A model generated the notes under the pieces. That model saw nothing but the letters and a program-made list of their open reading frames with translations. It was not told where the DNA came from and searched no databases. The translations under genes were made by a program, and so were the position numbers. Below, piece after piece: positions 12,744 through 64,000 of a DNA stretch of 64,000 nucleotides. The stretch's first letter is position 1. Every line of letters begins with the position of its first letter. This DNA comes from Escherichia coli (GTDB lineage: Bacteria; Pseudomonadota; Gammaproteobacteria; Enterobacterales; Enterobacteriaceae): the NCBI RefSeq assembly GCF_051903065.1, contig NZ_CP178438.1. The stretch is one strand, 5' to 3'.

Positions 12744-12956
12744 TGCGATTCTCCAGACAGGGCAAATTCCAGCACATATTACCCAAACTTATAGGTCGCG
12801 ACGAGATGACGCGTTAACACTTCTGCAAAATTCAGGATAAATAACGTCCATCAATCTCACTTTTGGCGAATGGCTGAAGCCAACGCCGTGTAGTGATATG
12901 ATAGAAGTATTCGTGTCTGAGATTGTCTCTGACTCCATAATTCGAAGGTTACAGTT

Positions 12957-14948: not shown

Positions 14949-15905
14949 ATGCGGGTTTTGATCGTTAAAACATCGTCGATGGGCGATGTACTCCATACGT
15001 TGCCCGCACTCACTGATGCCCAGCAGGCAATCCCAGGGATTAAGTTTGACTGGGTGGTGGAAGAAGGGTTCGCACAGATTCCTTCCTGGCACGCCGCCGT
15101 TGAGCGAGTTATTCCTGTGGCAATACGTCGCTGGCGTAAAGCCTGGTTCTCGGCCCCCATAAAAGCGGAACGCAAAGCGTTTCGTGAAGCGCTACAAGCA
15201 GAGAACTATGACGCAGTTATCGATGCTCAGGGGCTGGTAAAAAGCGCGGCGCTGGTGACGCGTCTGGCGCATGGCGTAAAGCATGGAATGGACTGGCAAA
15301 CCGCTCGCGAACCTTTAGCCAGCCTGTTTTACAATCGTAAACATCATATTGCAAAACAGCAGCACGCCGTAGAACGCATCCGCGAACTTTTTGCCAAAAG
15401 TCTGGGCTATAGCAAACCGCAAACCCAGGGCGATTATGCTATCGCACAGCATTTTCTGACGAACCTGCCTACAGATGCTGGCGAATATGCCGTATTTCTT
15501 CATGCGACGACCCGTGATGATAAACACTGGCCGGAAGAACACTGGCGAGAATTGATTGGTTTACTGGCAGATTCAGGGATTCGCATTAAACTTCCGTGGG
15601 GTGCGCCGCATGAGGAAAAACGGGCGAAACGACTGGCGGAAGGATTTGCTTATGTTGAAGTATTGCCGAAGATGAGTCTGGAAGGTGTTGCCCGTGTGCT
15701 GGCCGGAGCGAAATTCGTGGTATCGGTAGACACTGGGTTAAGTCATTTAACTGCAGCACTGGATAGACCGAATATCACGGTTTATGGACCAACCGATCCG
15801 GGATTAATTGGTGGGTATGGGAAGAATCAGGTGGTTTGTAGGGCGCCAGATAAAGATCTTTCTCATCTGACTGCAGAAGCGGTATTTAATAAAATCAATT
15901 CCTGA
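14949..15905 (+). CDS. waaC: ADP-heptose:LPS heptosyltransferase I (GT9)
   Basis: 318-aa ORF MRVLIVKTSSMGDVLHTLPALTDAQQAIPGIKFDWVVEEGF...; GT9 family. Confidence 0.93.
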   Translation: MRVLIVKTSSMGDVLHTLPALTDAQQAIPGIKFDWVVEEGFAQIPSWHAAVERVIPVAIRRWRKAWFSAPIKAERKAFREALQAENYDAVIDAQGLVKSAALVTRLAHGVKHGMDWQTAREPLASLFYNRKHHIAKQQHAVERIRELFAKSLGYSKPQTQGDYAIAQHFLTNLPTDAGEYAVFLHATTRDDKHWPEEHWRELIGLLADSGIRIKLPWGAPHEEKRAKRLAEGFAYVEVLPKMSLEGVARVLAGAKFVVSVDTGLSHLTAALDRPNITVYGPTDPGLIGGYGKNQVVCRAPDKDLSHLTAEAVFNKINS

Positions 15906-15943
15906 TTAATACGTTCTATATTATTTAAGATGGTGGAGAAGCA

Positions 15944-17161
15944 ATGTTAACAGCCTCGCTGGCGCTACGTAATAAAGAAAGCTGGAAACCGTACTGGAAT
16001 AAAACGTTGGTATTCCTCTTTATTGCAACCTTTTTCCTTGATGGTATTACCCGTTATAAACACATCATATCCATACTAATGATTATTACGGTAATCTATC
16101 AAGTTTCTCGTGCTCCAGGAACATTTAAAGTACTCTATAAAAATAATCTTTTTTATAGTGTCCTGGTACTATCATTCATTCTTTTATATGCTACTTTCAT
16201 ATCACCTGATCTGAAAATCAGTTTTAAAGAATTCAGTAATACGGTGCTTAAAGGATTTTTGGCCTATAGTTTACTTATACCTGCATTATTAAAAGATGAA
16301 GATAATGAAAGCATTGGTAAAATTGTACTATACTCATTAGTTACCGGACTTGGCTTACGTTGTCTTGTTGAACTTATTCTTTATATTCAAGATTATAATA
16401 AAGGAATAATGCCATTTTCCACCTATGAACACCGTAGTATTTCCGATTCAATGGTGTTTCTGTTTCCAGCATTATTAAACCTTTGGCTTATCAAGAAAAC
16501 CTCTTATAAAATAGCATTCGTAATTTTTAGTGCAGTTTTCTTATTTCTGCTATTAGGAACGCTGTCTCGTGGTGCATGGCTGGCAGTATTCATAGTGACT
16601 CTGCTATGGTTAATCTTAAATCGTCAGTGGAAATTATTGATGCTGACTTCCATCGTTATTTCTGTTGCCGCAGCGGGTGTATTTACCTATAAAAGTGATC
16701 ATACCGGTAAAGACAGGCTTATTTATAAACTTCAACAGACCGACAGTTCTTATCGCTATACCAATGGTACACAAGGTACGGCGTGGACATTAATTATGGA
16801 AAATCCGCTTAAGGGATATGGCTACGGCGATGATATTTACCATGCAATATATAATAAGCGTGTCGTAGATTTTCCGTCATGGACATTCAGGCAATCAATT
16901 GGACCACACAACATTGTTTTGTCAATTTGGTTTGCAGCAGGTTTAGCTGGACTACTCGCTTTACTTTATCTGTATGGCTCTATTATCAAAGAGACAGCTA
17001 ATGCAACGTTTAAAACAGTTGTCGTCACTCCTTATAATGGTCAATTACTACTATTTTTAACGCTTGTAAGCTTTTATATTATTCGAGGTAACTTCGAGGA
17101 AGTTGATCTCAAACCAATTGGCTTGATTGTTGGTTTACTGTTAGCAATGCGGAATAAATAA
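15944..17161 (+). CDS. waaL: O-antigen ligase (Wzy_C family polytopic membrane protein)
   Basis: 405-aa, low-GC, highly hydrophobic ORF at the end of the hldD-waaFC operon. The sequence differs from the K-12 WaaL as I recall it; the start codon is uncertain. Confidence 0.8.
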   Translation: MLTASLALRNKESWKPYWNKTLVFLFIATFFLDGITRYKHIISILMIITVIYQVSRAPGTFKVLYKNNLFYSVLVLSFILLYATFISPDLKISFKEFSNTVLKGFLAYSLLIPALLKDEDNESIGKIVLYSLVTGLGLRCLVELILYIQDYNKGIMPFSTYEHRSISDSMVFLFPALLNLWLIKKTSYKIAFVIFSAVFLFLLLGTLSRGAWLAVFIVTLLWLILNRQWKLLMLTSIVISVAAAGVFTYKSDHTGKDRLIYKLQQTDSSYRYTNGTQGTAWTLIMENPLKGYGYGDDIYHAIYNKRVVDFPSWTFRQSIGPHNIVLSIWFAAGLAGLLALLYLYGSIIKETANATFKTVVVTPYNGQLLLFLTLVSFYIIRGNFEEVDLKPIGLIVGLLLAMRNK

Positions 17162-17167
17162 AAAAAA

Positions 17168-17197
17168 GCCTGCCTGACATTAAGTTCAGGCAGGCTC
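17168..17197. terminator. Bidirectional Rho-independent terminator between convergent waaL and the waaQ operon
   Basis: Perfect hairpin gcctgcctgac-attaagt-tcaggcaggc, preceded by an A-run and followed by T-rich sequence. Confidence 0.75.
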
Positions 17198-17214
17198 TTC
17201 AAATCCAATAATTT

Positions 17215-18357
17215 TTAACCAAACCAGTCTTGTATTTGTGCTTCAAAACGCTGAGTAACATGTTCCCAGCTATATTTTGAGAAAACAAAATTTCGGGCAT
17301 TTTTAGCAATTTGAGCTCTGTCAGCATCCGCCAAAACTCGCTTAATATCCGCGAGAATACTTTCAGATGTCATAGGCTCTGCAAGGTGATAGCCTGTAAT
17401 TCCTTCCAGAACAAACTCACTAATTCCACCTTTTTGACTGGCAAGTACTGGTTTACCTGCCGCCATCGCTTCAACAGCTACCATACAAAAAGCTTCTTCT
17501 ACCTGAGAAGGAACAACAACTAAATCTGCTAAACGGTAATAGTTATGCATCTGCTCTGGAGGCTGTCCACCCGCCATAATGCATTGCGCTCCAATAGCTT
17601 TCGCTGCATCCAGAACTTTTTTCTGATATTCAGCTTTTTCGCCTTTTTTACTGGCAAAAGGATCTCCGACAATCACCAGTTTGAGGTTATCTTGTATCTT
17701 ATTCAGCTGATTAAAAGCCTCCATAAGCATCAGGCAACCTTTATCTGGTGATATCCTTCCTGCAAATAATAACACGGTATCATTTGCATCAATGTTCAGT
17801 TTCTGCCTCAAATCTTCAGTATTATTTTGTTCATACGATTCAGAACAAAAACCATTAGGCACAATAGCAATATTTGCATCAGGCATTTTTTCCGAATAGA
17901 AATCGAAAAGAAACTGGCTAGGAACAATTATCTTTGCATTTTTGTCTAACTCACCTGGCTCGAAAGCATTATGAAGATGCATAACTAGCTGCGCCTGAGG
18001 GCTTCTGCTACGAATCTGTTTATACAGCTTCATGCTATTGTGGATAACAATAACAGAGTCTTTCGGATCAGTGTTTTTAGGTTGGGTATTTAAAATACGC
18101 TGAGAATATGGCACAGGATCAAGTCGAGTCCACTTTTGGAAAAGTCGTTTATAGACTCGACTAAAACCAATGTAGTGAATATCACAGTGATCATTTACTT
18201 TTGTGTAGGTTGGGTAACCTTCGTTTCGAATACAGGCGATAGTTACTGGAATCGAAAGTCTTTTTGCGACCTGATAAATCCATGTTTCAACCGCTGCAGC
18301 TCCTTTTGGCGGTATAGAAAATATTGGTGTGACGGTAAATATTATTTTTTTAATCAT
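17215..18357 (-). CDS. waaK: GT4-family glycosyltransferase, terminal outer-core transferase (WaaK-like, putative GlcNAc transferase)
   Basis: ORF 17215-18405; likely start MIKKIIFTVTPIF... (about 380 aa); C-terminal GT4 motif EAFCMVAVEAMAAGKPVLASQKGGISEFVLEGITGY. K-12 has a GT9 heptosyltransferase (WaaU) at this position, so the core type here is not K-12. Confidence 0.7.
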   Translation of the reverse strand: MIKKIIFTVTPIFSIPPKGAAAVETWIYQVAKRLSIPVTIACIRNEGYPTYTKVNDHCDIHYIGFSRVYKRLFQKWTRLDPVPYSQRILNTQPKNTDPKDSVIVIHNSMKLYKQIRSRSPQAQLVMHLHNAFEPGELDKNAKIIVPSQFLFDFYSEKMPDANIAIVPNGFCSESYEQNNTEDLRQKLNIDANDTVLLFAGRISPDKGCLMLMEAFNQLNKIQDNLKLVIVGDPFASKKGEKAEYQKKVLDAAKAIGAQCIMAGGQPPEQMHNYYRLADLVVVPSQVEEAFCMVAVEAMAAGKPVLASQKGGISEFVLEGITGYHLAEPMTSESILADIKRVLADADRAQIAKNARNFVFSKYSWEHVTQRFEAQIQDWFG

Positions 18358-18409
18358 TATTAGCCAACTCCAATATAATTTATAACACGTAATAAACACA
18401 TACAAAATA

Positions 18410-19219
18410 TTAGCTTATTTTTTCATAAACACACGGCTCTTCAATTTCGGATATTTTCATATAGGGAATAATATCATATTGAATTGCAGTATCGTCGGAT
18501 AAATTATAAATATTGATATCTTCTATATTTTCACGCATAAAACGGAAAAATGGTAAAATTTTGAATAAATCCCGAGTCAACTCTGAGGGCATAGGATTCT
18601 TATCTTCATCATAGAAACGCGAACAGCTACCCGTTAAATCAAGGCCTGAACAGATAATACGAGCATACTTCAGCGAATAGGCTATTTGGATTGCAGCAAA
18701 AGCAACGGTATGGCATGAACAATAACCGAGGTTAATATCCTTGCAAAAGCCAACCAGACGACCTTTTTTAGAAAAAGGTACAGAGATCAGGAGCTCTTTA
18801 TGAATTCGGCTCAAAATATTAAACTTGATCTTCTTGATCAATCCACCTTTTTCTCTGCGGTAAAATGAACGTAGTACCAGGCAGTTTTGAAGGATGTACC
18901 GCTTATCTTCTTCAGAAGCATGTTCATAAACGTCAACATTTACGATGGTATAACGACTTCTCTGGCTAAATTTATAAAAATCATCACGCCGTTGATGTAA
19001 AAAGCGAACATCGGTAAGTACATAAATATAGGGAATAATATTATGACTTAATAGATATTGTGCAGAACCATTGACAGCAATAACATCCCTTGTCTGCAGC
19101 ACTGACAATGGTGTTTTTTGCGATGTGGGGCCGGAAAGAAAAATAATAACATCATCAGCCGTTTTACTTTCTATCAGGTTTTCAACATCTTTTTTGTCAA
19201 TGTATCTAATATTCTTCAT
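18410..19219 (-). CDS. waaZ: LPS core biosynthesis protein WaaZ (KDO transferase-like)
   Basis: 269-aa low-GC ORF in the conserved waaY-waaZ position; assignment is by synteny more than motif. Confidence 0.65.
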   Translation of the reverse strand: MKNIRYIDKKDVENLIESKTADDVIIFLSGPTSQKTPLSVLQTRDVIAVNGSAQYLLSHNIIPYIYVLTDVRFLHQRRDDFYKFSQRSRYTIVNVDVYEHASEEDKRYILQNCLVLRSFYRREKGGLIKKIKFNILSRIHKELLISVPFSKKGRLVGFCKDINLGYCSCHTVAFAAIQIAYSLKYARIICSGLDLTGSCSRFYDEDKNPMPSELTRDLFKILPFFRFMRENIEDINIYNLSDDTAIQYDIIPYMKISEIEEPCVYEKIS

Positions 19220-19290
19220 GATAAACCTGTGAAATAAGAACTCCGCATAGAAATGTCCTGACGAAGACGTTTAAATGTAAGACTTTTACT

Positions 19291-19989
19291 TTATCGTGCT
19301 GGCTTCCCTTTCAAACGCCGCATAAGATTACGTATTTTTTTACGATAAACTAAAAGATAATAACCGAGATCTTTAACCTCATTCTTAATACCATAATGTC
19401 GCTCTAAATCAATACGATCTTTCGCTTTACGTTGTGCAGATGCCCGTTTTCCTGAAAGATCAATAATGCGTACTTCACCATTTTCAATAATAAAATTACC
19501 GCGGTGAGGATCACCAGATACCATACCGTGTTCGTGTAATGAACGAATTGATTGTTGAATTTTATTTTTTAGCGAATCATCAATATCGGGGATATCACAC
19601 AACTCTACGCCATCGATATATTCGATAAGCATGATATAAGTATGGACAAAACGTAATGTTTTCCGTTCTGCCAACAAATAAAAATCATTGAGAGAATGTA
19701 GCCCCTCGTTACGCACTTTTTGAGTTTGCTCAAAAAGGCGTTCATAATAATCTCCCTTTAAAAGAGATTTAAAGAAACGTTCGTTGCGTTTTACTTTAGG
19801 CGAAAAAACTTTAAGTATCAATTTACCGTAATCGGTATCAATAAGCATGACTTTTGTATCATCTATAGAACGAAAAACTTTGATGATATTAATATCATAA
19901 GAAAGAAAGTCATTTAATACATTGAGATACTTTGAGTTATTTTCATCGGTAAAAACAACTAAATCTTTGATTTTATTCTTCTGAATCAT
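19291..19989 (-). CDS. waaY: LPS core heptose(II) kinase
   Basis: 232-aa ORF with kinase-like HRGN motif (SGDPHRGNFI); position between waaZ and waaJ. Confidence 0.8.
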   Translation of the reverse strand: MIQKNKIKDLVVFTDENNSKYLNVLNDFLSYDINIIKVFRSIDDTKVMLIDTDYGKLILKVFSPKVKRNERFFKSLLKGDYYERLFEQTQKVRNEGLHSLNDFYLLAERKTLRFVHTYIMLIEYIDGVELCDIPDIDDSLKNKIQQSIRSLHEHGMVSGDPHRGNFIIENGEVRIIDLSGKRASAQRKAKDRIDLERHYGIKNEVKDLGYYLLVYRKKIRNLMRRLKGKPAR

Positions 19990-20006
19990 GTTAAACCAGT
20001 TAAATG

Positions 20007-21023
20007 TTATTTACGGTAATATTTTCGGCAAAGATAACACACTCCTGCAATGAGTCCTGAGATATAATGATGTTGCACTAACAGATGTTTATATCTTTTT
20101 TTGAATTCAATAATTGATTTTGCATCTCGTGGTGAGTCATCTTTCCAGGGGGATCTTTCTAAAGCTATTTTATAGTATTTTACCGATGGATAAATTGCCC
20201 ATTTGTGCCACGGCTTGGTGGCCCCAGTATAATGAATAAGAAGAGTATCCTCTTTTATCAACTCTTTATATTTTTGATGCGTTTTATCTTTTAACTCACT
20301 TTTTATTGTATATATAGTATTGAACTCACGTGGCAGGAATATTGTCATCCCTTTTAGTAGGACATTCATAACGTCCTGGTCAGGATACTTATAAATACTA
20401 TCTTTACTCATAAGAATAGACAGTGCTTTTTCGGTTAGTTTTGCTTCTGTCCATTTTTTTAGGTCTAAGTAAACGACACCAGAATTAAAATACTGCCCCC
20501 GAAGTTCAGGATCAGATAATCTGACTACCGCCTTTTCCTGCATTGGGTCTACATCCCTGACTACTGCAGCCACCGCTCCATTAAACTCTAAATGCAATAG
20601 TTGACTAATATCTCCCTTACAAACTACATCTGCATCAAGATAAAGCAAACGATCAAGAGTTAAACCCAATAATTGAAATGCAAATAAACGGAAGTACATT
20701 GCTCTTGACCAGACCTGTGTACAAGGCAAGCACTGGAGCTTATCAGTGTTAATTCTATATAACGTGATTCTTAATTGGTATTGCTCTGCAAGCTTTGCAA
20801 CTTTTTGAAAAAAAGCATCATTATAAACATCAGCAATAATATAAAAATCAAGATTAATATGTCGATTATTTAGGACAATTGATGTGATGGAAACACCTAC
20901 ACCATCAAGATAATTAGCATCGACACCATAGGCAACATTTAAACATTCACAAGTATTTATATTAGCCAGCCGAAAATCCCAGGCTTTAACTTTATCTATC
21001 TCTATGGCAGGAAATGAGTCCAC
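20007..21023 (-). CDS. waaJ: GT8-family LPS outer-core 1,2-glycosyltransferase
   Basis: 338-aa ORF with GT8 motifs (YLDADVVC, FNSGVVYLDLKKW, DQDVMNVLL, HYTGATKPW). Confidence 0.8.
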   Translation of the reverse strand: MDSFPAIEIDKVKAWDFRLANINTCECLNVAYGVDANYLDGVGVSITSIVLNNRHINLDFYIIADVYNDAFFQKVAKLAEQYQLRITLYRINTDKLQCLPCTQVWSRAMYFRLFAFQLLGLTLDRLLYLDADVVCKGDISQLLHLEFNGAVAAVVRDVDPMQEKAVVRLSDPELRGQYFNSGVVYLDLKKWTEAKLTEKALSILMSKDSIYKYPDQDVMNVLLKGMTIFLPREFNTIYTIKSELKDKTHQKYKELIKEDTLLIHYTGATKPWHKWAIYPSVKYYKIALERSPWKDDSPRDAKSIIEFKKRYKHLLVQHHYISGLIAGVCYLCRKYYRK

Positions 21024-21062
21024 AATGCTACCCTTATATCATTACTTTATAGTTTCCCAGTT

Positions 21063-22082
21063 TTAATGCTTTATCTTTTCAATAAAATAAAAAAGATAGT
21101 TGCTAAACCCTTTTAGATATCTATGTTTTTTAAGCATATGTTTTGCGCTATATCTTAATTGATTGCTATTATTCGGTTTCAGCAACGCCGTATTCTTCCA
21201 TGGCGAAGCATTTTTTGCCTCCATAAATGCTTGTGATACAGGATAATCCCAGGCCCAATCATGCCAGGGCTTGGTTGGCCCGATATAATGGATAAAAATA
21301 GTATCGTTGGTAATTGGGTTTATAAAGTTATCTTTTAGTTGATAATTTAAGCTAAACTGGGTGTTATATTTAATATCAGCGAAAATAAGTTTATCTGCCA
21401 GCAACATATTTAATACATCCTGATCAGGATGTGTTATTTTTTTGATTATTTCTGGCTCATTTAGCATTGCAATGGCTCGTGTAGAAACCTGCTGAGCCGC
21501 CCATTTGGCAGTATTAATCAATAAAAAACCGGAGTTAAAGTAACCTTTAGCAATTCCCGCAACACCTAACGAATGGGCGCGTTTTTCCCACCAGTCAGCT
21601 TGCCCTTCAGAAACAACCATTGCGACTTTATCGTCAGGAAATGAGAATTTAATTAGTGGCTCAATAGTCCCCTGACAAATGATATCTGCATCCAGATAAA
21701 GGACTTTAGCCGCCTTATTAATAAAGTAATCTGCAATAACAAAACGGAAATATATTGCATGAGTCCAGTTCTTTGTGCTAGGCAATGAGCGTAGTCGGTC
21801 ACCATTAATCAGATATATTTTTATTCTGGTTTTATACTGTAACGCTAGGGCATCAAAATACTTACGATCATCATCACCAAAATAATCAGTAAAAATGTGG
21901 AAACACAACCGACTTCCTTCATTATACTTTAATATTGAAGCAATCGAAATTCCGCAACCAAATAGAAAGTTTTTGTCAGTTCCATAAGCGATGTCCAGAC
22001 AAAGATTTTCCGTTTCTACTTTATGATTATAATCAATAACTGAATTTAGAAACTCAGTTTCCTGGAATAATACCTGCTGCAT
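21063..22082 (-). CDS. waaI: GT8-family LPS outer-core 1,3-glycosyltransferase
   Basis: 339-aa ORF with GT8 motifs (YLDADIIC, FNSGFLLINTAKW, DQDVLNMLL, HYIGPTKPW); also known as waaO. Confidence 0.8.
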   Translation of the reverse strand: MQQVLFQETEFLNSVIDYNHKVETENLCLDIAYGTDKNFLFGCGISIASILKYNEGSRLCFHIFTDYFGDDDRKYFDALALQYKTRIKIYLINGDRLRSLPSTKNWTHAIYFRFVIADYFINKAAKVLYLDADIICQGTIEPLIKFSFPDDKVAMVVSEGQADWWEKRAHSLGVAGIAKGYFNSGFLLINTAKWAAQQVSTRAIAMLNEPEIIKKITHPDQDVLNMLLADKLIFADIKYNTQFSLNYQLKDNFINPITNDTIFIHYIGPTKPWHDWAWDYPVSQAFMEAKNASPWKNTALLKPNNSNQLRYSAKHMLKKHRYLKGFSNYLFYFIEKIKH

Positions 22083-23161
22083 TATTTCCTCCGGGAAATA
22101 GCAGAAATAATTATATTATGTAATCTATCGTAATACTTCAATTGATAAAACTTATCGATCGACGCAGGAATTTTTTCATGTTCGATATGAATTTCACCTG
22201 CTATATATTTATTTAGAAGAGTTACAAAACCAGCAATATCTCCCGGTTGATACAGATGGCCATTGACATCAGATTGAATAATGTCAGCAGGCCCGGAGAC
22301 ACAATCGGCACTAATACAAGGAATCCCCCATGATAAGGCTTCAAGCAGGGTCATTGGGAAACCTTCAAAAGATGACGTGAGCAGTAACGCACTCACTTTT
22401 TTAATATCTTGCTGGACCAATTCCCAGGGATGTTGTTGCCAACCATACCAGTCAATTCGATTATCAATATTTAGTTCTCTACTATAAGCCTGGCATTTTT
22501 CGAAATCGGAACCATCACCCAATACATGGAGTTTCCAGTTACCTTGCGCTTGTGATAAGCCATCAAACAGGTCTTTAACCCTCTTCTGGCCTTCAAATTT
22601 CATACGCCCAACATAAATGAATGTTGCCGTTTCGCCTTCCCCGGGTGCAGGAATGACTGAATTTTTCGCCTCGACGGGATTAAAAATAACGTTTATTGTC
22701 GATTCTGGTACACCCCGGCTAATCATTTGCCGTTTAATACCAGAGCTGATGGCTAAATGATAGTCGGCACAGGTGATATATTCAGCATGTTTTTTATGAT
22801 CTAAAGAAAAATGCGGCCATGAAAATACAGGTACATCAATCCCCGATTTTTTACGAGCTTTGGACGCATACAAACACGAGATCACGTCAATACAAATAAC
22901 AACATCTGGCTGATAATCCTGAAGCCATTTGCTTAAAGCATGAATATGTTTCGCGCGACGCAAAAAACCTAAGCGAATATTGGAAAATGAACAAGAGTAC
23001 TTAATATCTTCCAGCCACCCCTTATCCATTTTGTCATTACGACAAAAGAAAAACATTTCACTTTGGATATGTTGTTGCCTGAAGGTAGTAATAACATCAC
23101 GAATGACTGTTTCCATGCCGCCAAAACCAGAAACAGCTTCGCCAATAAAGGCTATTTTCAT
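22082..23161 (-). CDS. waaB: GT4-family LPS 1,6-galactosyltransferase
   Basis: 359-aa ORF MKIAFIGEAVSGFGGMETV... with C-terminal GT4 motif SSFEGFPMTLLEALSWGIPCIS. Confidence 0.85.
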   Translation of the reverse strand: MKIAFIGEAVSGFGGMETVIRDVITTFRQQHIQSEMFFFCRNDKMDKGWLEDIKYSCSFSNIRLGFLRRAKHIHALSKWLQDYQPDVVICIDVISCLYASKARKKSGIDVPVFSWPHFSLDHKKHAEYITCADYHLAISSGIKRQMISRGVPESTINVIFNPVEAKNSVIPAPGEGETATFIYVGRMKFEGQKRVKDLFDGLSQAQGNWKLHVLGDGSDFEKCQAYSRELNIDNRIDWYGWQQHPWELVQQDIKKVSALLLTSSFEGFPMTLLEALSWGIPCISADCVSGPADIIQSDVNGHLYQPGDIAGFVTLLNKYIAGEIHIEHEKIPASIDKFYQLKYYDRLHNIIISAISRRK

Positions 23162-23174
23162 AATTACATTCCAG

Positions 23175-24155
23175 CTAAATATTTAAGCAAAACAATTTAA
23201 CAAGTAAATACTTATAATAATAAGAAATGGCTTTCCAATATTTTCCTTCTAACCAAAAAACTTTAGACTTTAACCTAATCTCACTTGATGATGGAGCTAG
23301 TTTTCTTTTATAGTTCTTCCATGGGGAATTTGAAAAATAATGATCAAAATTTTGCGCTCTAAATATTTTGTACCATGGTTTATTCGGAGTTACATAATGC
23401 ATTATAATTGTGTTTGGCAAGTTTTTTTGCTCTTCATCACATCGTACTGACAATGTTGTCTTATTATTGTACTTGTTATTAAGGTAATGTACTCGTCCAT
23501 TAAGTAAAATATTAAGCACATCCTGATCTGCATATCTATATACTTTCCCACTGTTGATCATCTCTAAAGCTTTTTGTGTTATATTATGTTTTTTCCATGC
23601 GCTGGTATTAATAAGCATAACCCCGGCATTAAAATAATCCACAAACTCAATGCCATAATCTAATTTTTTTACACGTTCTTGCATTTCTGGTGAGTCTGGA
23701 ATTACACATGCAATATTAGCATTTAAATTATAATCAACCAGTTCATCTAAATGGCTATTACATATGACATCACAGTCAAGATAAAGTATATTATTTATTT
23801 TATCATCAATAACTTCTGGGATTAAGAAACGTAAACATGTTGATAAAGGAATACCAAGAACTAATGTATCCGGATTAATGTCAAATTTATCAGTTATATA
23901 ATATACAGATATTGATGTATGAGGACCTTCTAGCTCGTAAAAAGCTGAACACTCTTTTTCTTCTATGCCTGATATAAGAAGGTGAAAATGAAGGTTAATA
24001 TGACTATTGTTGGATATAATTGAATATAATGCAACGCCTGCTGGCATTATGAATTCATAATCAAAGCATAGTGCAATATGTAAATGTTTAACATATGACA
24101 GTTCGTTTTGGAATAAATCTTGCCTCTTAGCAACGAAATTTCTATATTTCAACAA
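23175..24155 (-). CDS. GT8-like glycosyltransferase occupying the waaS position (very AT-rich)
   Basis: 326-aa ORF with GT8 motifs (YLDCDVICN, FNAGVMLINTSAW, DQDVLNILL, HYVTPNKPW), between waaP and waaB. I cannot confirm from memory whether it is orthologous to K-12 WaaS. Confidence 0.6.
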   Translation of the reverse strand: MLKYRNFVAKRQDLFQNELSYVKHLHIALCFDYEFIMPAGVALYSIISNNSHINLHFHLLISGIEEKECSAFYELEGPHTSISVYYITDKFDINPDTLVLGIPLSTCLRFLIPEVIDDKINNILYLDCDVICNSHLDELVDYNLNANIACVIPDSPEMQERVKKLDYGIEFVDYFNAGVMLINTSAWKKHNITQKALEMINSGKVYRYADQDVLNILLNGRVHYLNNKYNNKTTLSVRCDEEQKNLPNTIIMHYVTPNKPWYKIFRAQNFDHYFSNSPWKNYKRKLAPSSSEIRLKSKVFWLEGKYWKAISYYYKYLLVKLFCLNI

Positions 24156-24187
24156 TTTTAGAATCCCTTACTGTAATAAAATATTAT

Positions 24188-24985
24188 TTACAAGTTTTTT
24201 CTTATTGTTCTTTCTTCTATTTTTTTTGCTTTAATTTTTGCCTTTTTAAGTAAATCAGTCTCAAGTTTAAAAATATCGCGTAAAGGCATCCCAAAATAAA
24301 CCTTCATAAATCGCCAGATATCTCTCTGCGTCAGACCAATATTCATTGATGAGAAATACAAACCAATCAAATCTTTATCGCGCCAACGACGTGGAACGCG
24401 CGTGCGAAGCTGCGCCCGGTGCAGGTCAATTACCGAAATTTTTAACTCCTCTTCCTTACCGGAAAAAGGCAAGTGCAGCAGGAAATGACAGATATAACAG
24501 TCACGGTGGTTAATGCCCGCAGCATGCATATCGCGCACCATCGTCGCGACACGCTTAATAAGCATACGCTTTACGCGAACATCTGGTGGGTTGGTCGCCC
24601 AGTCAGCACAGTAATCTTCCAGACTGATGGTTGGTGTCAGATCTTCGGTAATAATAAATGAAGTTCTGGTCAGCGGATTCATGCCTTTTTCGCCAAATGC
24701 CACCCCATACATAGTATCAACGCCGACATCCCGCAGTCGATGAATCGCATTCCATTCGCGGTCTGCGCCTAATACTGGCATCCGCAATGAGAGTAAATTT
24801 TTGATTATCTCTTTCAGAGTCGTGCCGCGATGCCATTTGAGAAAATAGCTTTTGCCCGCCATTTCAAAGCGCAGAGTACGGCGAGTTTCCAGTTCACGAA
24901 ATACCTCACCCTGCAAGGTTTTAACTTCCTCAAAAGGATCTTTACCGCGCCATAACGTGGCAAACGGCTCTTTAAGTTCAACCAT
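24188..24985 (-). CDS. waaP: LPS core heptose(I) kinase
   Basis: Likely start [21 protein letters not shown]...; kinase-like fold; conserved position. Confidence 0.9.
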
Positions 24986-27206: not shown

Positions 27207-27245
27207 CACGCTACCGCCCCAGGCTCAACAGCTACCTGAATACTG
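27207..27245 (-). promoter_or_regulatory. JUMPstart element with ops site (GGCGGTAGCGTG) in the waaQ operon leader (RfaH-dependent antitermination)
   Basis: Minus strand reads cagtattcaggtagctgttgagcctggggcggtagcgtg; the 12-nt ops consensus is exact at 27207-27218 (forward cacgctaccgcc). Confidence 0.85.
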
Positions 27246-34122: not shown

Positions 34123-34146
34123 TGACGCCGGATGAATTTTCATCCG
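34123..34146. terminator. Bidirectional terminator between convergent slmA and pyrE
   Basis: gccggatgaa-ttt-tcatccggc hairpin followed by gagtttcttt. Confidence 0.7.
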
Positions 34147-34156
34147 GCGAGTTTCT

Positions 34157-34798
34157 TTAAACGCCAAACTCTTCGCGATAGGCCTTAACCGCCGCCAGAT
34201 GTTCCGCCATTTCCGGCTTCTCTTCCAGGTAAGCAATCAGATCTTTCAGGGTGATGATAGAGATCACTTTGCAGTTGTAATCACGCTCAACTTCCTGAAT
34301 CGCCGAAATCTCGCCGCGCCCCCGTTCCTGACGATCGAGCGAAATCAACACGCCAGCAAGCGTCGCGCCATTGGCCTGAATAATTTCCATCGACTCACGA
34401 ATCGCCGTTCCGGCGGTGATCACATCATCTACCAGCATTACGCGTCCTTGTAACGCGCTACCAACCAGATTGCCGCCTTCACCGTGGTCTTTTGCCTCTT
34501 TGCGGTTAAAGCAGTACGGCAGGTCCAGGTCATGATGCTCCGCCAACGCCACGGCGGTTGTGGTGGCAATCGGGATCCCTTTGTAAGCAGGGCCAAACAG
34601 CAGATCGAACTCAATGCCGGAGTCCACCAATGCTTCAGCGTAAAAACGGCCTAACAGTGCCAGGTCGCGCCCGGTATTAAACAGCCCGGCGTTGAAGAAA
34701 TAGGGGCTTTTACGCCCGGATTTCAGCGTAAACTCGCCAAACTTTAACACCTGCTTGCTAAGCGCAAATTCAATAAACTGGCGCTGATATGGTTTCAT
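34157..34798 (-). CDS. pyrE: Orotate phosphoribosyltransferase
   Basis: Start [38 protein letters not shown]; 213 aa. Confidence 0.93.
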
Positions 34799-34862
34799 GC
34801 CTTCGCTCCTCATCTTACTTTTCTACAGACAAAAAAAAGCGACTCATCAGTCGCCTTAAAAA

Positions 34863-35579
34863 TCAGTTTGCCAGCGCCGCCTTCTGCGTCGCTACAATGG
34901 ATTCGATTCCCCCTCGGGCCAGCGCCAACAAGGTGAGTAGCTCTTCATGGGTGAACGGCTCGCCTTCTGCCGTCCCCTGCACTTCAATGATGCGCCCGTC
35001 TTCGGTCATCACTACGTTCATGTCGGTCTCTGCGGCAGAGTCTTCAACGTATTCCAGATCGCAAACCGCTTCGCCGTTCACAATCCCGACAGAAACCGCG
35101 GCTACCATCCCTTTCATCGGGTTGGTTTTCAGCTTGCCGTTTTCCACCAGCTTCTGTAGCGCATCTGCCAGCGCCACACAGGCACCCGTAATCGAAGCGG
35201 TACGCGTGCCACCATCAGCCTGAAGCACGTCGCAGTCCAGCGTAATGGTGAACTCACCCAGCGCTTTCAAATCTACTGCCGCGCGAAGCGCACGGGCGAT
35301 CAGACGCTGGATTTCCATTGTGCGTCCACCCTGCTTACCTTTCGCCGCTTCACGAGCGTTACGGGTGTGGGTAGAACGTGGCAGCATGCCGTACTCTGCG
35401 GTGATCCAGCCCTGGCCCTGACCTTTCAGGAAGCGCGGCACGCCTTCTTCAATAGAGGCGGTACACAACACTTTGGTATCGCCAAATTCGACCAGCACCG
35501 AGCCTTCTGCATGTTTTGTATAGTTACGAGTCAGGGTAACGGGACGCACCTGATTATTGCTACGGCCTGCTGGACGCAT
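34863..35579 (-). CDS. rph: Ribonuclease PH (apparently full length)
   Basis: Start [39 protein letters not shown]; 238 aa, ending ...ATQKAALAN. Confidence 0.9.
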
Positions 35580-35705
35580 ATTGAAATCTCCGGCTTGAAA
35601 CAAATGTGGCTGCGCATTATACGGACTTCCGGCGGTTATTCCTATCCTGACAAGGCATCGATGGCTATAATCCTTCCACCTCTCCTTTTATAAACAGGAA
35701 CGTCT

Positions 35706-55251: not shown

Positions 55252-55346
55252 GGAAGATCGTCGTCTCCGGTGAGGCGGCTGGACTTCAAATCCAGTTGGG
55301 GCCGCCAGCGGTCCCGGGCAGGTTCGACTCCTGTGATCTTCCGCCA
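55252..55346 (+). tRNA. selC: tRNA-Sec (selenocysteine, anticodon UCA)
   Basis: 95-nt sequence ggaagatcgtcgtctccggtgaggcggctggacttcaaatccagttggggccgccagcggtcccgggcaggttcgactcctgtgatcttccgcca, with long variable arm, UCA anticodon and encoded CCA. Confidence 0.95.
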
Positions 55347-55645
55347 GTTTACCTCTTCTGAACTCTCCCAATGTCAATAAATCTCTTCTAATCCCTTGTA
55401 TATCAGTATTTATTTGTATCCAGAGGTCAACCTACTTCACCCCGTATCAAGTTTCTTTTGGGGGTACTTTAGGGGGTGTTATTTCCTATTGAAATACCAG
55501 CACCCCCATAATAGGAAAAATGTGATATATAACAACGGCTTTTAACAACATCTTTGTTATACAAGGGGTGTATTGGGGGTATCAGGTTAGTTACTGGCAG
55601 AAATCCCCCTCAGGAACATGAATTCATCAAAAGCCGGAGGATGTC

Positions 55646-56437
55646 ATGGCATTAACCGATATCAAAGTGAAAACCGCAAAACCCAAAGACAAACCCTATA
55701 AGCTTGCTGATGGCGGCGGTATGTATCTACTGATTAACACTAATGGTTCTAAATACTGGCGCATGAAGTACCGCTTTGCTGGTAAAGAAAAGATGCTTTC
55801 TATTGGCGTATACCCCGATGTAACGCTAGCCGATGCTCGCGAGAAACGCAGTGAAGCCAGGAAACTCCTCGCTGCTGGAGGCGATCCAGGGGAGGCAAAA
55901 AAGGAAGAAAAAATCGCGCAGCAAATGAGTCTGCAAAATACGTTCGAGGCTATTGCTCGCGAATGGCACCAGTCAAAAGCCGATCGGTGGTCATTACGCT
56001 ATCGTGATGAAATCATTGATACCTTTGAAAAAGACATTTTTCCCTACATTGGCAAGCGCCCTATTGCCGAAATCAAACCAATGGAGTTACTGGAAGCACT
56101 GCGTAAAATGGAAAAACGTGGAGCTCTGGAGAAAATGCGCAAGGTCCGCCAGCGCTGTGGTGAGGTGTTCCGCTATGCAATTGTTACTGGCCGGGCAGAC
56201 TATAACCCAGCCCCCGATCTTGCCAGTGCTTTAGCTACACCGAAAAAAGTACATTTTCCCTTTCTTACTGCTAATGAACTTCCCCACTTCCTCAACGATC
56301 TGGCGGGTTATACCGGAAGTATAATCACTAAGACAGCTACTCAGATCATTATGTTAACCGGCGTACGAACACAAGAACTGCGTTTTGCACGCTGGGAAGA
56401 TATCGATTTTGAGACAAAATTGGGCTTTGTTGAATAA
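55646..56437 (+). pseudogene. Truncated P4-type tyrosine integrase (N-terminal arm-binding and core-binding part only)
   Basis: 263-aa ORF MALTDIKVKTAKPKDKPYKLADGGGMYLLINTNGSKYWRMKYRFAGKEKMLSIGVYPDV... (typical P4-family integrase N-terminus), 300 bp downstream of selC. Native sequence ends at 56422; the frame runs 4 codons into the IS left inverted repeat and stops. The catalytic R..HxxR..Y domain is absent. Confidence 0.85.
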
Positions 56438-57479
56438 ATCGAACTTTTGCTGAGTTGAAGGATCAGATCACGTATCTTCCCGACAACGCAGACCGTTCCG
56501 TGGCAAAGCAAAAGTTCAAAATCACCAACTGGCCCACCTACAATAAAGCCCTCATCAACCGTGGCTCCATAACTTTCTGGCTGGATGATGAAGCTATTCA
56601 GGCCTGGTATGAGTCAGCAACACCTTCTTCACGAGGCAGACCTCAGCGCTATTCTGACCTTGCCATCACGACTGTGCTGGTCATTAAACGCGTATTCAGG
56701 CTGACCCTGCGCGCTGCGCAGGGCTTTATTGATTCCATTTTTTCTCTGATGAACGTTCCGCTACGCTGCCCGGATTACAGCTGTGTCAGCAGGCGGGCAA
56801 AGTCGGTTAATGTCAGTTTCAAAACGCCCACCCGGGGTGAAATCGCACACCTGGTAATTGATTCCACCGGGCTGAAGGTCTTCGGTGAAGGCGAGTGGAA
56901 AGTCAAAAAGCATGGCCAGGAACGCCGCCGTATCTGGCGTAAGCTGCATCTCGCCGTTGACAGTAAAACACATGAAATCATCTGCGCTGACCTGTCGCTG
57001 AACAACGTTACGGACTCAGAGGCCTTCCCCGGGTTAATCCGGCAAACCCACCGGAAAATCAGGTCAGCCGCCGCCGATGGCGCTTACGATACCCGGCTAT
57101 GTCACGATGAACTGCGGCGTAAGAAAATCAGCGCGCTTATCCCTCCCCGAAAAGGTGCGGGTTACTGGCCCGGTGAATATGCAGACCGTAACCGTGCAGT
57201 GGCTAATCAGCGAATGACCGGGAGTAATGCGCGGTGGAAATGGACAACAGATTACAACCGTCGCTCGATAGCGGAAACGGCGATGTACCGGGTAAAACAG
57301 CTGTTCGGGGGTTCACTGACACTGCGTGACTACGATGGTCAGGTTGCAGAGGCTATGGCCCTGGTACGAGCGCTGAACAAAATGACGAAAGCAGGTATGC
57401 CTGAAAGCGTGCGTATTGCCTGAAAACACAACCCGCTACGGGGGAGACTTACCCGAAATCTGATTTATTCAACAAAGCC
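56423..57479 (+). mobile_element. IS903-group (IS5-family) insertion sequence, 1057 bp, intact 18-bp terminal inverted repeats, no target-site duplication
   Basis: Left end ggctttgttgaataaatc (56423-56440) and right end gatttattcaacaaagcc (57462-57479) are exact inverted repeats. The left-end sequence matches the IS903 end of Tn903 as I recall it. Flanking 9-mers acaaaattg and ggatttcat are not identical. Confidence 0.88.
56455..57423 (+). CDS. IS903-family DDE transposase
   Basis: 322-aa ORF (TTG start in the track) ...YLPDNADRSVAKQKFKITNWPTYNKALINRGSITFWLDD...; it fills the IS between the inverted repeats. The true start may be downstream. Confidence 0.85.
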   Translation: MKDQITYLPDNADRSVAKQKFKITNWPTYNKALINRGSITFWLDDEAIQAWYESATPSSRGRPQRYSDLAITTVLVIKRVFRLTLRAAQGFIDSIFSLMNVPLRCPDYSCVSRRAKSVNVSFKTPTRGEIAHLVIDSTGLKVFGEGEWKVKKHGQERRRIWRKLHLAVDSKTHEIICADLSLNNVTDSEAFPGLIRQTHRKIRSAAADGAYDTRLCHDELRRKKISALIPPRKGAGYWPGEYADRNRAVANQRMTGSNARWKWTTDYNRRSIAETAMYRVKQLFGGSLTLRDYDGQVAEAMALVRALNKMTKAGMPESVRIA

Positions 57480-57770
57480 GGATTTCATCTGAACAACGGC
57501 CCACAGGCCGATCGACTTGCCGACCTGGAAAGAATGCTGCATCTGTTCAGCGGCAAACCGATCCCCGACAACCGGGAAAACATCACTATTCATCTGAATG
57601 AGCACATCCGGTCTGTTCAGGGTAAAGAGTGCTATGAAGATGAAATGTTCAGCATCAGATACTTTAAGAAGGGCTCCGCGCACATCACGTTCAGGAAACC
57701 AGAACTGGTTGATCGGCTAAATGATATTATAGCCAGACACTATCCGGAAATGTTACCTTCACAATAGAGT
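57480..57770 (+). pseudogene. Orphan 3' gene fragment (C-terminal 96 codons of an unidentified protein) abutting the IS right end
   Basis: The frame is open from the first base after the IS right repeat (GFHLNNGPQADRLADLERMLHLFSGKPIPDNRENITIHLNEHIRSVQGKECYEDEMFSIRYFKKGSAHITFRKPELVDRLNDIIARHYPEMLPSQ) with no start or ribosome-binding context. Family not recognised. Confidence 0.5.
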
Positions 57771-57899
57771 ACTAAGAATTGATTCAATTATGTATTTTAG
57801 CTTCATTCCTTCATGCAAAATCATTTGGGGGTTCTTATGGGGGTTACTCATTTATCCAACACATACAAATTATTTAAGATCAATGCATTAATACTTATA

Positions 57900-57921
57900 T
57901 TCGACTCCTGTGATCTCCGCC
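57900..57921 (+). repeat. Imperfect direct repeat of the selC 3' end (attR-like island boundary)
   Basis: tcgactcctgtgatctccgcca matches selC 55324-55346 (tcgactcctgtgatcttccgcca) apart from a single T deletion; the following ~50 nt also resemble the sequence just downstream of selC. Confidence 0.8.
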
Positions 57922-58559
57922 AAAATGCCTCTCCTGACGTTCTCCAACCCCTTGTAATACTGTCAATCCAGATATTTTCTACTGCTCAATATTCAATCGG
58001 CTTCAGGAATACCTGGTCTAAGGTTTTGTGATGGACGATGAGCGGCTGAAGAATCCGCCTGTCGGTTCTTCTGTCCTCGAACGCATCCGCGATATTCACG
58101 CCAGTATGCGCCGTGTTTATTTGCAGGTGATTTGCCCCCCTGCTGACTCTCAGCCAACTGTATCGCCATTAAGGTGAAGATGTTGTTTTACTCGCCCCAG
58201 AACACCCTTTTTTATACGACTATTCTATTTCTTTAACCGCTGGCGAAAAAAAACTGACTATAAACTTCACCAATAATCAGACTGCCATCAAGATTAATTT
58301 GTTCATTTAATATATCAAATCAACTTGTTTTATTTTTACTATCAAAAATAGCTCATTGCCTTACTATAATTAATATATAAATTCGGTAATTAATTCTTAA
58401 CATGCTTTTACTAATAATCTCAATTGCTGGCCCTATAATATTGCGCTAGCATTGCTTTCTGGTTGTATCAGCGATACTCAAAAATTCTTAATACAATACT
58501 CATTCGACTGGTACTTATTTGTAACTCAGTTATATTTTTTCGCCCGGTGATTCAGAAGA

Positions 58560-59744
58560 ATGCAAAAAACGGCTACCACTCCATCAAAAATACTTGATCT
58601 CACTGCCGCGGCATTTTTACTTGTCGCCTTTCTGACGGGTATTGCGGGCGCTCTTCAGACTCCTACCCTAAGTATATTCCTCGCAGATGAACTGAAAGCC
58701 CGTCCTATAATGGTAGGTTTTTTCTTCACCGGTAGCGCTATTATGGGAATTCTGGTCAGTCAATTTCTGGCAAGGCACTCCGATAAACAAGGCGACCGTA
58801 AATTACTGATTCTGCTATGTTGCTTATTTGGAGTGCTGGCCTGCACGCTTTTTGCGTGGAATCGCAACTACTTCATTCTCCTCTCAACGGGCGTACTTCT
58901 GAGTAGTTTTGCTTCCACCGCAAACCCGCAAATGTTCGCCCTCGCCCGTGAACACGCCGACAGAACAGGCCGTGAGACGGTCATGTTCAGTACATTTTTA
59001 CGTGCTCAGATCTCGCTTGCCTGGGTTATCGGGCCACCGCTCGCTTATGAACTGGCAATGGGATTTAGTTTTAAAGTGATGTATCTCACCGCTGCCATCG
59101 CATTTGTTGTTTGCGGACTGATAGTCTGGTTGTTTTTGCCATCAATACAAAGAAATATTCCTGTCGTTACCCAACCCGTAGAAATTTTACCCTCCACCCA
59201 CAGGAAGCGGGATACGCGGCTACTTTTTGTGGTCTGTTCAATGATGTGGGCGGCGAATAATCTCTACATGATAAATATGCCGCTATTTATTATTGATGAA
59301 CTGCATCTAACCGATAAACTGGCTGGAGAAATGATTGGTATCGCTGCCGGTCTGGAAATTCCGATGATGTTAATCGCAGGCTATTACATGAAACGTATTG
59401 GCAAGCGACTATTAATGCTCATTGCTATCGTGAGTGGAATGTGTTTTTACGCCAGCGTACTCATGGCGACGACTCCGGCGGTTGAGCTGGAATTGCAAAT
59501 TCTTAATGCCATCTTCCTTGGTATTCTCTGTGGTATCGGCATGCTTTATTTTCAGGACTTGATGCCTGAAAAAATAGGCTCTGCGACAACGTTATATGCA
59601 AATACTTCACGCGTCGGCTGGATTATCGCCGGCTCTGTTGACGGAATTATGGTTGAAATCTGGAGCTACCATGCGTTGTTCTGGCTGGCGATAGGGATGT
59701 TGGGTATTGCGATGATTTGCCTGCTGTTTATTAAAGATATTTAG
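58560..59744 (+). CDS. setC: Sugar efflux transporter (MFS, SET family)
   Basis: 394-aa ORF MQKTATTPSKILDLTAAAFLLVAFLTGIAGALQTPTLSIFLADELKARP...; clear similarity to SetA/SetB as I recall them. Confidence 0.88.
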   Translation: MQKTATTPSKILDLTAAAFLLVAFLTGIAGALQTPTLSIFLADELKARPIMVGFFFTGSAIMGILVSQFLARHSDKQGDRKLLILLCCLFGVLACTLFAWNRNYFILLSTGVLLSSFASTANPQMFALAREHADRTGRETVMFSTFLRAQISLAWVIGPPLAYELAMGFSFKVMYLTAAIAFVVCGLIVWLFLPSIQRNIPVVTQPVEILPSTHRKRDTRLLFVVCSMMWAANNLYMINMPLFIIDELHLTDKLAGEMIGIAAGLEIPMMLIAGYYMKRIGKRLLMLIAIVSGMCFYASVLMATTPAVELELQILNAIFLGILCGIGMLYFQDLMPEKIGSATTLYANTSRVGWIIAGSVDGIMVEIWSYHALFWLAIGMLGIAMICLLFIKDI

Positions 59745-59854
59745 CTCACCAGTCTGGGCTAAGAAAAATCGGCGTGGCGCAAACAGAGCCATCCTCGCCA
59801 TTTTTGCTATCATGCCTGCATACATAAACGACAAAACAGTATGCAGAGGGAAAA

Positions 59855-60778
59855 ATGGGTTCCACCAGAAAGGGGATGCTGAACGTTCTGATTGCCGCCG
59901 TGTTGTGGGGAAGTTCAGGGGTCTGCGCGCAATACATCATGGAGCAAAGCCAGATGTCGTCGCAGTTTTTGACTATGACGCGTTTGATATTCGCCGGTTT
60001 GATTCTACTGACGCTGTCATTTGTTCATGGCGATAAAATCTTTTCTATTATTAACAATCATAAAGATGCCATTAGCCTGCTGATTTTTTCCGTGGTTGGC
60101 GCGCTAACTGTACAGCTCACTTTTTTGCTAACCATCGAAAAATCGAACGCAGCCACGGCAACGGTGCTGCAATTCCTCTCACCGACGATTATCGTCGCCT
60201 GGTTCTCACTGGTGCGTAAATCGCGCCCGGGCATTCTGGTTTTCTGCGCTATTTTGACATCGCTGGTCGGGACTTTTTTATTGGTGACACACGGTAATCC
60301 GACGTCATTATCGATCTCTCCTGCCGCGTTGTTCTGGGGCATTGCCTCGGCATTTGCTGCTGCATTCTATACCACCTATCCCTCAACGCTAATTGCCCGC
60401 TATGGCACGTTACCAGTCGTCGGCTGGAGTATGCTGATTGGCGGTCTGATTCTGTTGCCTTTTTATGCCAGACAAGGAACAAACTTTGTCGTTAACGGCA
60501 GTTTGATTCTGGCGTTTTTTTATTTGGTGGTCATTGGTACGTCCCTGACATTTAGTCTGTACCTGAAAGGAGCACAATTAATTGGCGGTCCAAAAGCCAG
60601 CATTTTGAGCTGTGCAGAACCATTAAGTAGCGCGCTACTCTCTTTGCTGTTGCTGGGGATCACGTTCACATTACCGGACTGGCTGGGAACGCTGCTGATT
60701 CTGTCATCGGTGATTTTGATTTCAATGGATTCCCGTCGCCGCGCCAGAAAAATAAATCGTCCGGCGCGGCATAAGTGA
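59855..60778 (+). CDS. yicL: EamA/DMT-family inner membrane transporter
   Basis: 307-aa polytopic [36 protein letters not shown]...; two EamA-like halves. Confidence 0.85.
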
Positions 60779-60781
60779 GAA

Positions 60782-61600
60782 TTACCAGCCAGGCACCGCG
60801 CCACCGTTAAAAATGGTTTCTGCCGCTTTAGCGACTTCGGGTGATTGATAAGATTGCAGAAATTCCTTCACGTTTTCTGCATTCTTATTATCTTCCCGTG
60901 CCACCAAAATATTCACATACGGCGAATTCTTATCTTCAATAAATACGCTGTCGTGCACCGGAGAAAGCCCGGTCTGCTGAATGTAAGTGGTGCTGATAAT
61001 CGCTACATCAACTTTGGGATCATCCAGTACGCGCGGGAGCTGCGCCCCCTCGAGTTCCATAATCTGCAAATGACGAGGATTATCGGTTATATCCAGCGCG
61101 GTAGGTAATAACCCTTTTCCCTCTTTCAGAGTAATTAGCTTCTCTTTTTGCAACAGTAAAAGTGCGCGACCAAGGTTGGTCGGGTCGTTGGGGATCGCCA
61201 CTGTCGCGCCTTCTTTTATTTGCGCCACGGTTTTGATTTTTTTGGAATAACCCGCCATAGGGAAGACAAACGTATTTCCCACCGCTACCAGTTTATAACC
61301 ATGCGCCTGATTATCTTGTTCAAGAAAGGGTCGATGCTGGAAGACATTCGCATCAAGTTCGCCATGATTTGTCGCATCGTTCGGTAGCAACGAACCGCTA
61401 AATCCTACCAGTTCAACATCGAGGCCATATTTCTCTTTTGCCACCTTTTTAGCGACTTCCGCGACATCTTGTTCTGCGCCATTTATAACGCCAACTTTAA
61501 TGTGTTTTGCATCGCTGCTACTCTGGTCGCAACCTGCCAGCAGAATTCCGGCCAGCAATAATGCGGCCCCTGTCCGTAGATGATGTGTTGTCAGTTTCAT
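60782..61600 (-). CDS. nlpA: Lipoprotein 28 (MetQ-like methionine-binding lipoprotein)
   Basis: 272-aa ORF MKLTTHHLRTGAALLLAGILLAGCDQSS (lipobox LAGC); NlpA/MetQ fold. Confidence 0.9.
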   Translation of the reverse strand: MKLTTHHLRTGAALLLAGILLAGCDQSSSDAKHIKVGVINGAEQDVAEVAKKVAKEKYGLDVELVGFSGSLLPNDATNHGELDANVFQHRPFLEQDNQAHGYKLVAVGNTFVFPMAGYSKKIKTVAQIKEGATVAIPNDPTNLGRALLLLQKEKLITLKEGKGLLPTALDITDNPRHLQIMELEGAQLPRVLDDPKVDVAIISTTYIQQTGLSPVHDSVFIEDKNSPYVNILVAREDNKNAENVKEFLQSYQSPEVAKAAETIFNGGAVPGW

Positions 61601-61821
61601 TTTTTTATCCTTTTATTAATGATTACCTGACTATAGCGGTAAGGTCGCTGCGGTTTAAAAAACGAAACGCTATCGATAAGAATAAAAAGGAATAAAAGTG
61701 GAATATAAAGTCTGGCACTTCTTACTGACCACGCAAGCGCGTTTCGTACAGCATGATGAGAGCGATGAAAGCAAACTACACTTATGCTTCATTCGATACA
61801 CATTTGTAAAAGGTTGAATCC

Positions 61822-62115
61822 ATGAAACCAACGACACTACTGCTTATTTTCACTTTTTTCGCTATGCCAGGCATCGTATACGCCGAGTCGCCTTTTAGCT
61901 CACTGCAGTCCGCAAAAGAGAAAACCACGGTATTACAAGATTTACGTAAAATTTGCACGCCACAGGCGTCATTATCAGATGAAGCGTGGGAAAAGTTAAT
62001 GTTGTCAGATGAAAACAATAAACAACATATACGCGAGGCCATCGTGGCGATGGAACGTAATAATCAGAGCAATTATTGGGAAGCGTTGGGTAAGGTAGAA
62101 TGCCCGGATATGTAA
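61822..62115 (+). CDS. yicS: Small secreted protein of unknown function
   Basis: 97-aa ORF MKPTTLLLIFTFFAMPGIVYAESPF... with signal peptide; conserved position between nlpA and nepI. Confidence 0.75.
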   Translation: MKPTTLLLIFTFFAMPGIVYAESPFSSLQSAKEKTTVLQDLRKICTPQASLSDEAWEKLMLSDENNKQHIREAIVAMERNNQSNYWEALGKVECPDM

Positions 62116-62155
62116 GAACAGCAACAACTACTGACCAACGCTTCTTTACCTGATA

Positions 62156-63346: not shown

Positions 63347-63556
63347 GGTGTTACCCGTGGCATGTTTCAGGGGAAAAGCCGACCACTTTAACATTGAAAT
63401 GTGTGACGCATTTAACGTTTTTGCAACTTTTACGGTGTTGCTTGAGCTGGAGTTAAGATCGAAACGGAACAGGGCAAAGATTACCGGATGCGGCGTGAAC
63501 GTCTTATCCACCCGACAGGTCAGGCGCGGTCTGTAGGCTGATAAGACGAAACGGTT

Positions 63557-63997: not shown

Positions 63998-64000
63998 TAT

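Follow-up and report, generated by a model that had tools for sequence, protein, structure and literature searches.

The rph and pyrE genes of E. coli form an operon whose wild-type organization is shared by strains such as O157:H7, ST648, JJ2434, and 23CRST027. In these strains, the genes lie in the order yicC / rph-pyrE / slmA, and the rph stop codon adjoins a hairpin upstream of pyrE. In the canonical form of the operon, the spacer between the two genes is 65 nt long. The hairpin is regarded as the pyrE attenuator in a model that goes back to Bonekamp 1984 and Jensen 1993, as it is relayed in PMC2784333 and the supplement of PMC5933015. According to these accounts, RNA polymerase would lag when UTP is low, and the ribosome finishing rph would then cover the 5' arm of the hairpin. 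With the 5' arm covered, no hairpin would form, termination would not occur, and transcription would enter pyrE.

The best-known departure from this organization is the rph-1 allele of MG1655, whose mechanism and phenotype are summarized in PMC2784333, the PMC5933015 supplement, and PMC9997739 (citing Jensen 1993 and Bonekamp 1984). In these summaries, rph-1 is a deletion that leaves four G in what was a run of five. As a result, the ribosome would leave the message 29 nt earlier, the hairpin would be out of its reach, and termination would prevail. The consequence would be an under-expression of pyrE and hence the partial pyrimidine starvation of MG1655. The defect is readily reverted or bypassed when MG1655 is placed under selection: restoration of the run by an extra C, a deletion (Δ82-bp), and terminator mutations have all been described (PMC5691611, PMC5933015, PMC2784333).

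The locus described here lies in a stretch of 64,000 nucleotides of E. coli DNA, referred to as the window. Its rph gene occupies positions 34863-35579 on the minus strand and consists of 717 nt, that is, 238 codons and a native TGA stop codon (34863-34865, minus strand). The encoded protein ends in ...ATQKAALAN. A first-pass annotation of the window had proposed a full-length rph of 238 codons with this same end, and the proposal is accurate to the base. The start codon is the ATG at 35579, as annotated in every RefSeq genome inspected; a program-made list of open reading frames starts rph at an upstream TTG at 35603. A scan for sigma-70 consensus sequences upstream of rph yielded no promoter at its threshold. 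Taken as a whole, the locus is best explained as an rph-pyrE operon in its usual wild-type form, from an E. coli isolate that is natural and not of K-12 origin, a reading to which we assign a probability of about 97% on the strength of the sequence comparisons given below.

The integrity of the rph gene can be read directly from its product. The protein matches the TIGR01966 profile (RNase PH equivalog, cut-off 141.5 bits) with a score of 380.8 bits, and residues 2-236 cover positions 1-235 of the 236 in the profile. Two Pfam domains are also present, RNase_PH (PF01138, 107 bits) and RNase_PH_C (PF03725, 58 bits). Furthermore, the solved structure of P. aeruginosa RNase PH (1R6L) aligns with the product from end to end, including the C-terminal helix. 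The C-terminal segment that is missing from the rph-1 product is intact here, with residues 208-237 corresponding to residues 209-238 of 1R6L. The open reading frame is a real gene and not a chance one, judging by a profile score far above the cut-off, the coverage of nearly the whole profile, and the alignment with 1R6L. The conserved stretches GGRT (residues 84-87) and DGGTRTAS (residues 122-129) are present, and the protein would be expected from the literature on RNase PH to act as a phosphorolytic 3'-5' exoribonuclease. Its sequence is the same as that of WP_001247093.1, which is the RNase PH of the ST648, O157:H7, O157:H16, JJ2434, and STLIN_13 strains and of 23CRST strains including 23CRST027.

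The site of the rph-1 mutation differs between the window and MG1655. In MG1655 (NC_000913.3), rph (b3643) is annotated as a truncated RNase PH gene of 687 nt. A pairwise alignment of rph-pyrE with NC_000913.3 covered 1,622 positions and gave 27 differences, including two indels. The first indel is at the rph-1 site, where the coding strand of the window has a run of five G (34909-34913, minus strand) and MG1655 and W3110 have only four; the window reads CCCGAGGGGGAATC and MG1655 reads CCCGAGGGGAATC. With four G, the MG1655 frame is shifted at codon 224 and runs into a TAG after 228 amino acids, ending in ...ARGESNPL. The same TAG triplet is found in the window at 34892-34894 (minus strand), where it falls outside the reading frame (ATT GTA GCG) and is unused. 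W3110 carries the four-G sequence of MG1655, as shown by a 71/71 probe match through GGGGA. These observations bear out the earlier statement that the MG1655 gene is frameshifted and truncated. The first-pass annotation also held that an identical 3' sequence in MG1655 would speak against an intact rph in the window. The last 100 nt of rph show three differences from MG1655, namely C/T at 34933, G/T at 34923, and the extra G, so the two ends are not identical. The rph-1 allele, in which the five-G run is one G·C pair shorter and the product has 228 aa, is absent from the window, which has five G and a 238-aa product. The absence of rph-1 is explained by the window not being descended from the W1485 laboratory lineage. 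In other respects the two loci are alike: the position and orientation are the same, the nucleotide identity over rph-pyrE is 98.3%, and the PyrE proteins are identical. Besides the four-G run and the shortened product, MG1655 differs in having V138 and I216 in RNase PH and 65 nt between the native stop position and pyrE.

The region between rph and pyrE has the anatomy of the described attenuator. The intercistronic spacer spans 34799-34862 (minus strand) and is exactly 64 nt long, in agreement with the 64-bp gap reported in the first pass; this length is itself unlike K-12, which shares a 65-nt spacer with most E. coli. The TGA of rph is followed by UUUUU (5 nt), then by a GC-rich hairpin beginning at 34857, and then by a T-tract running to 34831. 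The hairpin (34836-34857, minus strand), recovered by a terminator scan and by folding, consists of AAGGCGACU-GAUG-AGUCGCUUU, with nine pairs, one of them G·U. The T-tract contains eight T (34831-34838, minus strand), the first three of which are pulled into the stem in this allele. The predicted folding energy is -13.8 kcal/mol (z = -4.7 versus shuffles). An Rfam search of the window returned no family for the attenuator and matched only tRNA-Sec and JUMPstart. The rph stop codon is 5 nt away from the hairpin, and the rph-1 stop lies 29 nt further upstream. The window keeps the native geometry, in which, if the coupling described in the literature operates here, a ribosome finishing rph would mask the hairpin.

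Downstream of the attenuator, GAGGAG (34806-34811, minus strand) is located 7 nt before the pyrE ATG and is the likely Shine-Dalgarno sequence of pyrE. The pyrE gene (34157-34798, minus strand) encodes an orotate phosphoribosyltransferase of 213 amino acids that begins with MKPYQRQF, matches TIGR00336 with 240.6 bits (cut-off 106.8), and is identical to the PyrE of MG1655. Among the wild-type strains named above, the RNase PH proteins are identical to that of the window, and the PyrE proteins are identical or near-identical. Between the convergent ends of slmA and pyrE lies a GC-rich, perfect palindrome of ten pairs (34126-34149), found by pattern matching, which is probably a bidirectional terminator closing the operon. 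The stretch it occupies is highly divergent among strains; ST648 and MS10495, for example, carry many substitutions there.

Does an intact rph tell where a sequence comes from? The first-pass annotation had taken it as an indicator that the window is not derived from MG1655. To count alleles, a set of 5,426 complete E. coli genomes was searched with probes centred on the G-run. A 71-nt MG1655 probe whose 3' end fell on the G-run gave 348 matches, which comprise rph-1 and rph+ K-12 genomes together. The 75-mer of MG1655 rph-1 was found exactly in 167 genomes (only laboratory strains among the matches listed), and the K-12 sequence with the G restored, a 76-mer, was found exactly in 180 genomes, nearly all of them K-12 laboratory strains. 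The latter include DH10B, DH1, DH5alpha, C600, MC4100, BW2952, NCM3722, and RR1. Thus, on these sequence counts, rph-1 marks the W1485/EMG2/MG1655/W3110 branch and does not mark K-12 in general: of the complete K-12 genomes, about half (180 versus 167) are rph+. The report that EMG2 carries rph-1 and WG1 does not (PMC9997739) agrees with this reading. The rph+ state of DH1 genomes also accounts for the finding that evolved DH1 acquired no pyrE or rph mutations, even though DH1 was said to share the defect (PMC5691611). The 180 genomes even include eight RefSeq records named 'K-12 MG1655' (CP010438-CP010445, e.g. NZ_CP010445.1), which have a five-G rph+ gene, unlike the plain MG1655 sequence.

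In the comparison set, all eight of the eight genomes other than MG1655 have five G, and the intact rph is the ancestral and normal state of E. coli. The finding of an intact rph is therefore correct but ordinary and already known. Of the earlier claim, two parts stand, namely that rph is intact and that the window does not come from MG1655; the intact gene by itself is a weak indicator that excludes very little. Used alone, rph status is unfit to separate K-12 from non-K-12, as roughly one in two of the K-12 strains sequenced is rph+. An intact gene only places a sequence outside the MG1655/W3110 sub-lineage, and a sequence divergence of 2-9% shows the same far more strongly.

This divergence is seen across most of the window. 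Most blocks of the 64-kb sequence are 96.5-98.5% identical to MG1655, and the waa cluster is 91% identical. Over rph-pyrE alone, the window has 26-27 differences from DH10B and MG1655 (98.3-98.4% identity), and six of its SNPs are private to it among the nine sequences compared. The nearest genome is that of a natural isolate, 23CRST027 (human faeces, Ecuador), with 2 mismatches over 49,499 nt (99.996% identity). Its rph is annotated as a 717-nt ribonuclease PH gene, and the gap to pyrE is 64 nt as in the window. In RNase PH, the window has A138 and T216. The two K-12 genomes in the comparison, MG1655 and DH10B, carry V138 and I216 instead, and the A138V and T216I substitutions are private to K-12 in the comparison set. 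The window does not have the K-12 haplotype (V138, I216, the 65-nt spacer, and the K-12 synonymous SNPs). On this evidence, the window is not derived from MG1655. K-12 lines with rph-1 and those with rph+ are both excluded because of the SNP background, the A138/T216 residues, the 91-98% identity with a different waa cluster, and the match to 23CRST027.

Larger differences from MG1655 are found elsewhere in the window. The htrL region of MG1655 (about 1.3 kb) is missing, and the waa cluster for the LPS core is of a type unlike that of MG1655, with two segments unmatched and the rest only 91% identical. The coordinates of the htrL and waa differences are 12847-12909, 15854-24278, and 27207-27245. 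In the waa region, the annotation of the nearest genome lists a GlcNAc transferase and a GT8 protein, and a JUMPstart element is present upstream of waaQ. Beside tRNA-Sec (selC), at 55252-57900, there is a 2.5-kb insert that MG1655 lacks. It contains a truncated phage-type integrase gene (55646-56437), which a DDE transposase gene (56455-57423) interrupts, together with a DUF4942 fragment. Across selC, the identity to MG1655 leaps from 96.5% on the left to 99.9% on the right (57900-64000), a jump that suggests a recombination boundary.

Could the intact gene nevertheless be of K-12 origin? One route would be descent from a K-12 line that never carried rph-1, for example DH10B, DH1, C600, MC4100, or NCM3722, in which case the intact rph would be uninformative. 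In favour of this route are the 180 complete genomes that combine K-12 SNPs with five G, nearly all of them laboratory strains, and the rph of DH10B, which is 717 nt long. However, these genomes have V138, I216, and a 65-nt spacer where the window has A138, T216, and 64 nt, and 26-27 differences over 1.6 kb, a non-K-12 waa cluster, and only 91-98% identity over most of the window make this origin very improbable. Even less probable is a derivative of MG1655 or W3110 in which engineering, or adaptive evolution in minimal medium, had reverted or repaired rph-1. Both true reversion, through an extra C in the run, and repair by engineering are on record (a table in PMC5691611; PMC5933015), and the window also carries a one-base attenuator deletion, described below, that is known as a laboratory suppressor in MG1655. 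Yet a revertant would retain the K-12 SNPs, whereas the window has 25 other differences in rph-pyrE and differs by 2-9% elsewhere. Moreover, its attenuator deletion is linked to the six private SNPs in a haplotype carried by hundreds of natural isolates.

The intact frame might also be an artefact of assembly, in which a homopolymer miscall added a G to a frameshifted gene, since the difference is one base of a G homopolymer, a classic type of error. Against this stand the five-G run as the norm of the species (8/8 non-MG1655 genomes examined), the 1,621-nt rph-pyrE segment that is 100% identical in dozens of independently sequenced genomes, and a resulting C-terminus that matches the conserved C-terminal helix of RNase PH. 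A miscall thus has hardly any likelihood, and the wild-type operon of a natural isolate remains the preferred reading.

The second indel relative to MG1655 is located inside the attenuator, and it is here that the operon of the window departs from the canonical wild type. The window reads GAGTCGC followed by eight T, whereas MG1655 reads GAGTCGCC followed by eight T. The missing C is at about 34839-34841 in the 3' arm of the stem. The spacer is 64 nt instead of 65 nt because of this one absent C, and the variant is referred to as ΔC. The sequence GAGTCGCC is found in MG1655 and in all seven other genomes compared, two of which have a T7 or T9 tract. These eight genomes comprise several very different strain types and two K-12 strains. 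By parsimony, ΔC would be the derived state, given that all eight of them have CC. An exact match to the canonical 82-mer (65-nt form) was counted in 4,577 of 5,415 matching genomes, and the 81-mer of the window was exact in 484. The remaining genomes have other spacer variants, including T7, T9, and IS insertions. For example, T7 is found in O157:H16 and T9 in MS10495; in 23CRST050, an IS200/IS605 tnpA is inserted just after the T-tract, and in PEC399 an ISApl1 element lies under the spacer match.

The loss of the C replaces a G-C pair of the stem with G·U, draws one more U of the tract into the stem, and so shortens the free part of the tail by one U. Compared with the MG1655-type hairpin (-15.8 kcal/mol), the ΔC hairpin is predicted to be weaker by about 2 kcal/mol; as a minority variant, the attenuator of the window may differ from the canonical one in its quantitative behaviour.

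The same sequence change is described in laboratory evolution. Positions -41/-42 upstream of pyrE in MG1655, which read GG on the plus strand, are this stem CC, and a mutation designated pyrE(G-41ΔG terminator) recurs in several independently evolved MG1655 lineages according to Table S2 of Knöppel et al. 2018 (PMC5933015). In that source, the authors propose that the mutation increases read-through of the attenuator. The attenuator that results from it has the same sequence as that of the window, GAGTCGC followed by eight T. The two differ in their origin: the laboratory mutation arose de novo in rph-1 MG1655 under selection for more pyrE, whereas the allele of the window is natural, accompanies an rph+ gene, and is linked to a distinct haplotype. 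The deletion together with the private SNPs fits a haplotype of single origin that is carried along by a lineage, and it may be neutral. A more speculative possibility, which we consider rather unlikely, is that the ΔC attenuator, present in about 9% of complete genomes, is a functional regulatory variant in nature that would raise the basal read-through into pyrE or flatten the response to UTP in rph+ strains. If so, a pyrE mutation regarded as a laboratory adaptation would already be segregating in natural populations. The natural polymorphism of the spacer (65-nt, ΔC, T7, T9, and IS forms) could also concern those who make use of pyrE regulation or of natural isolates as chassis strains.
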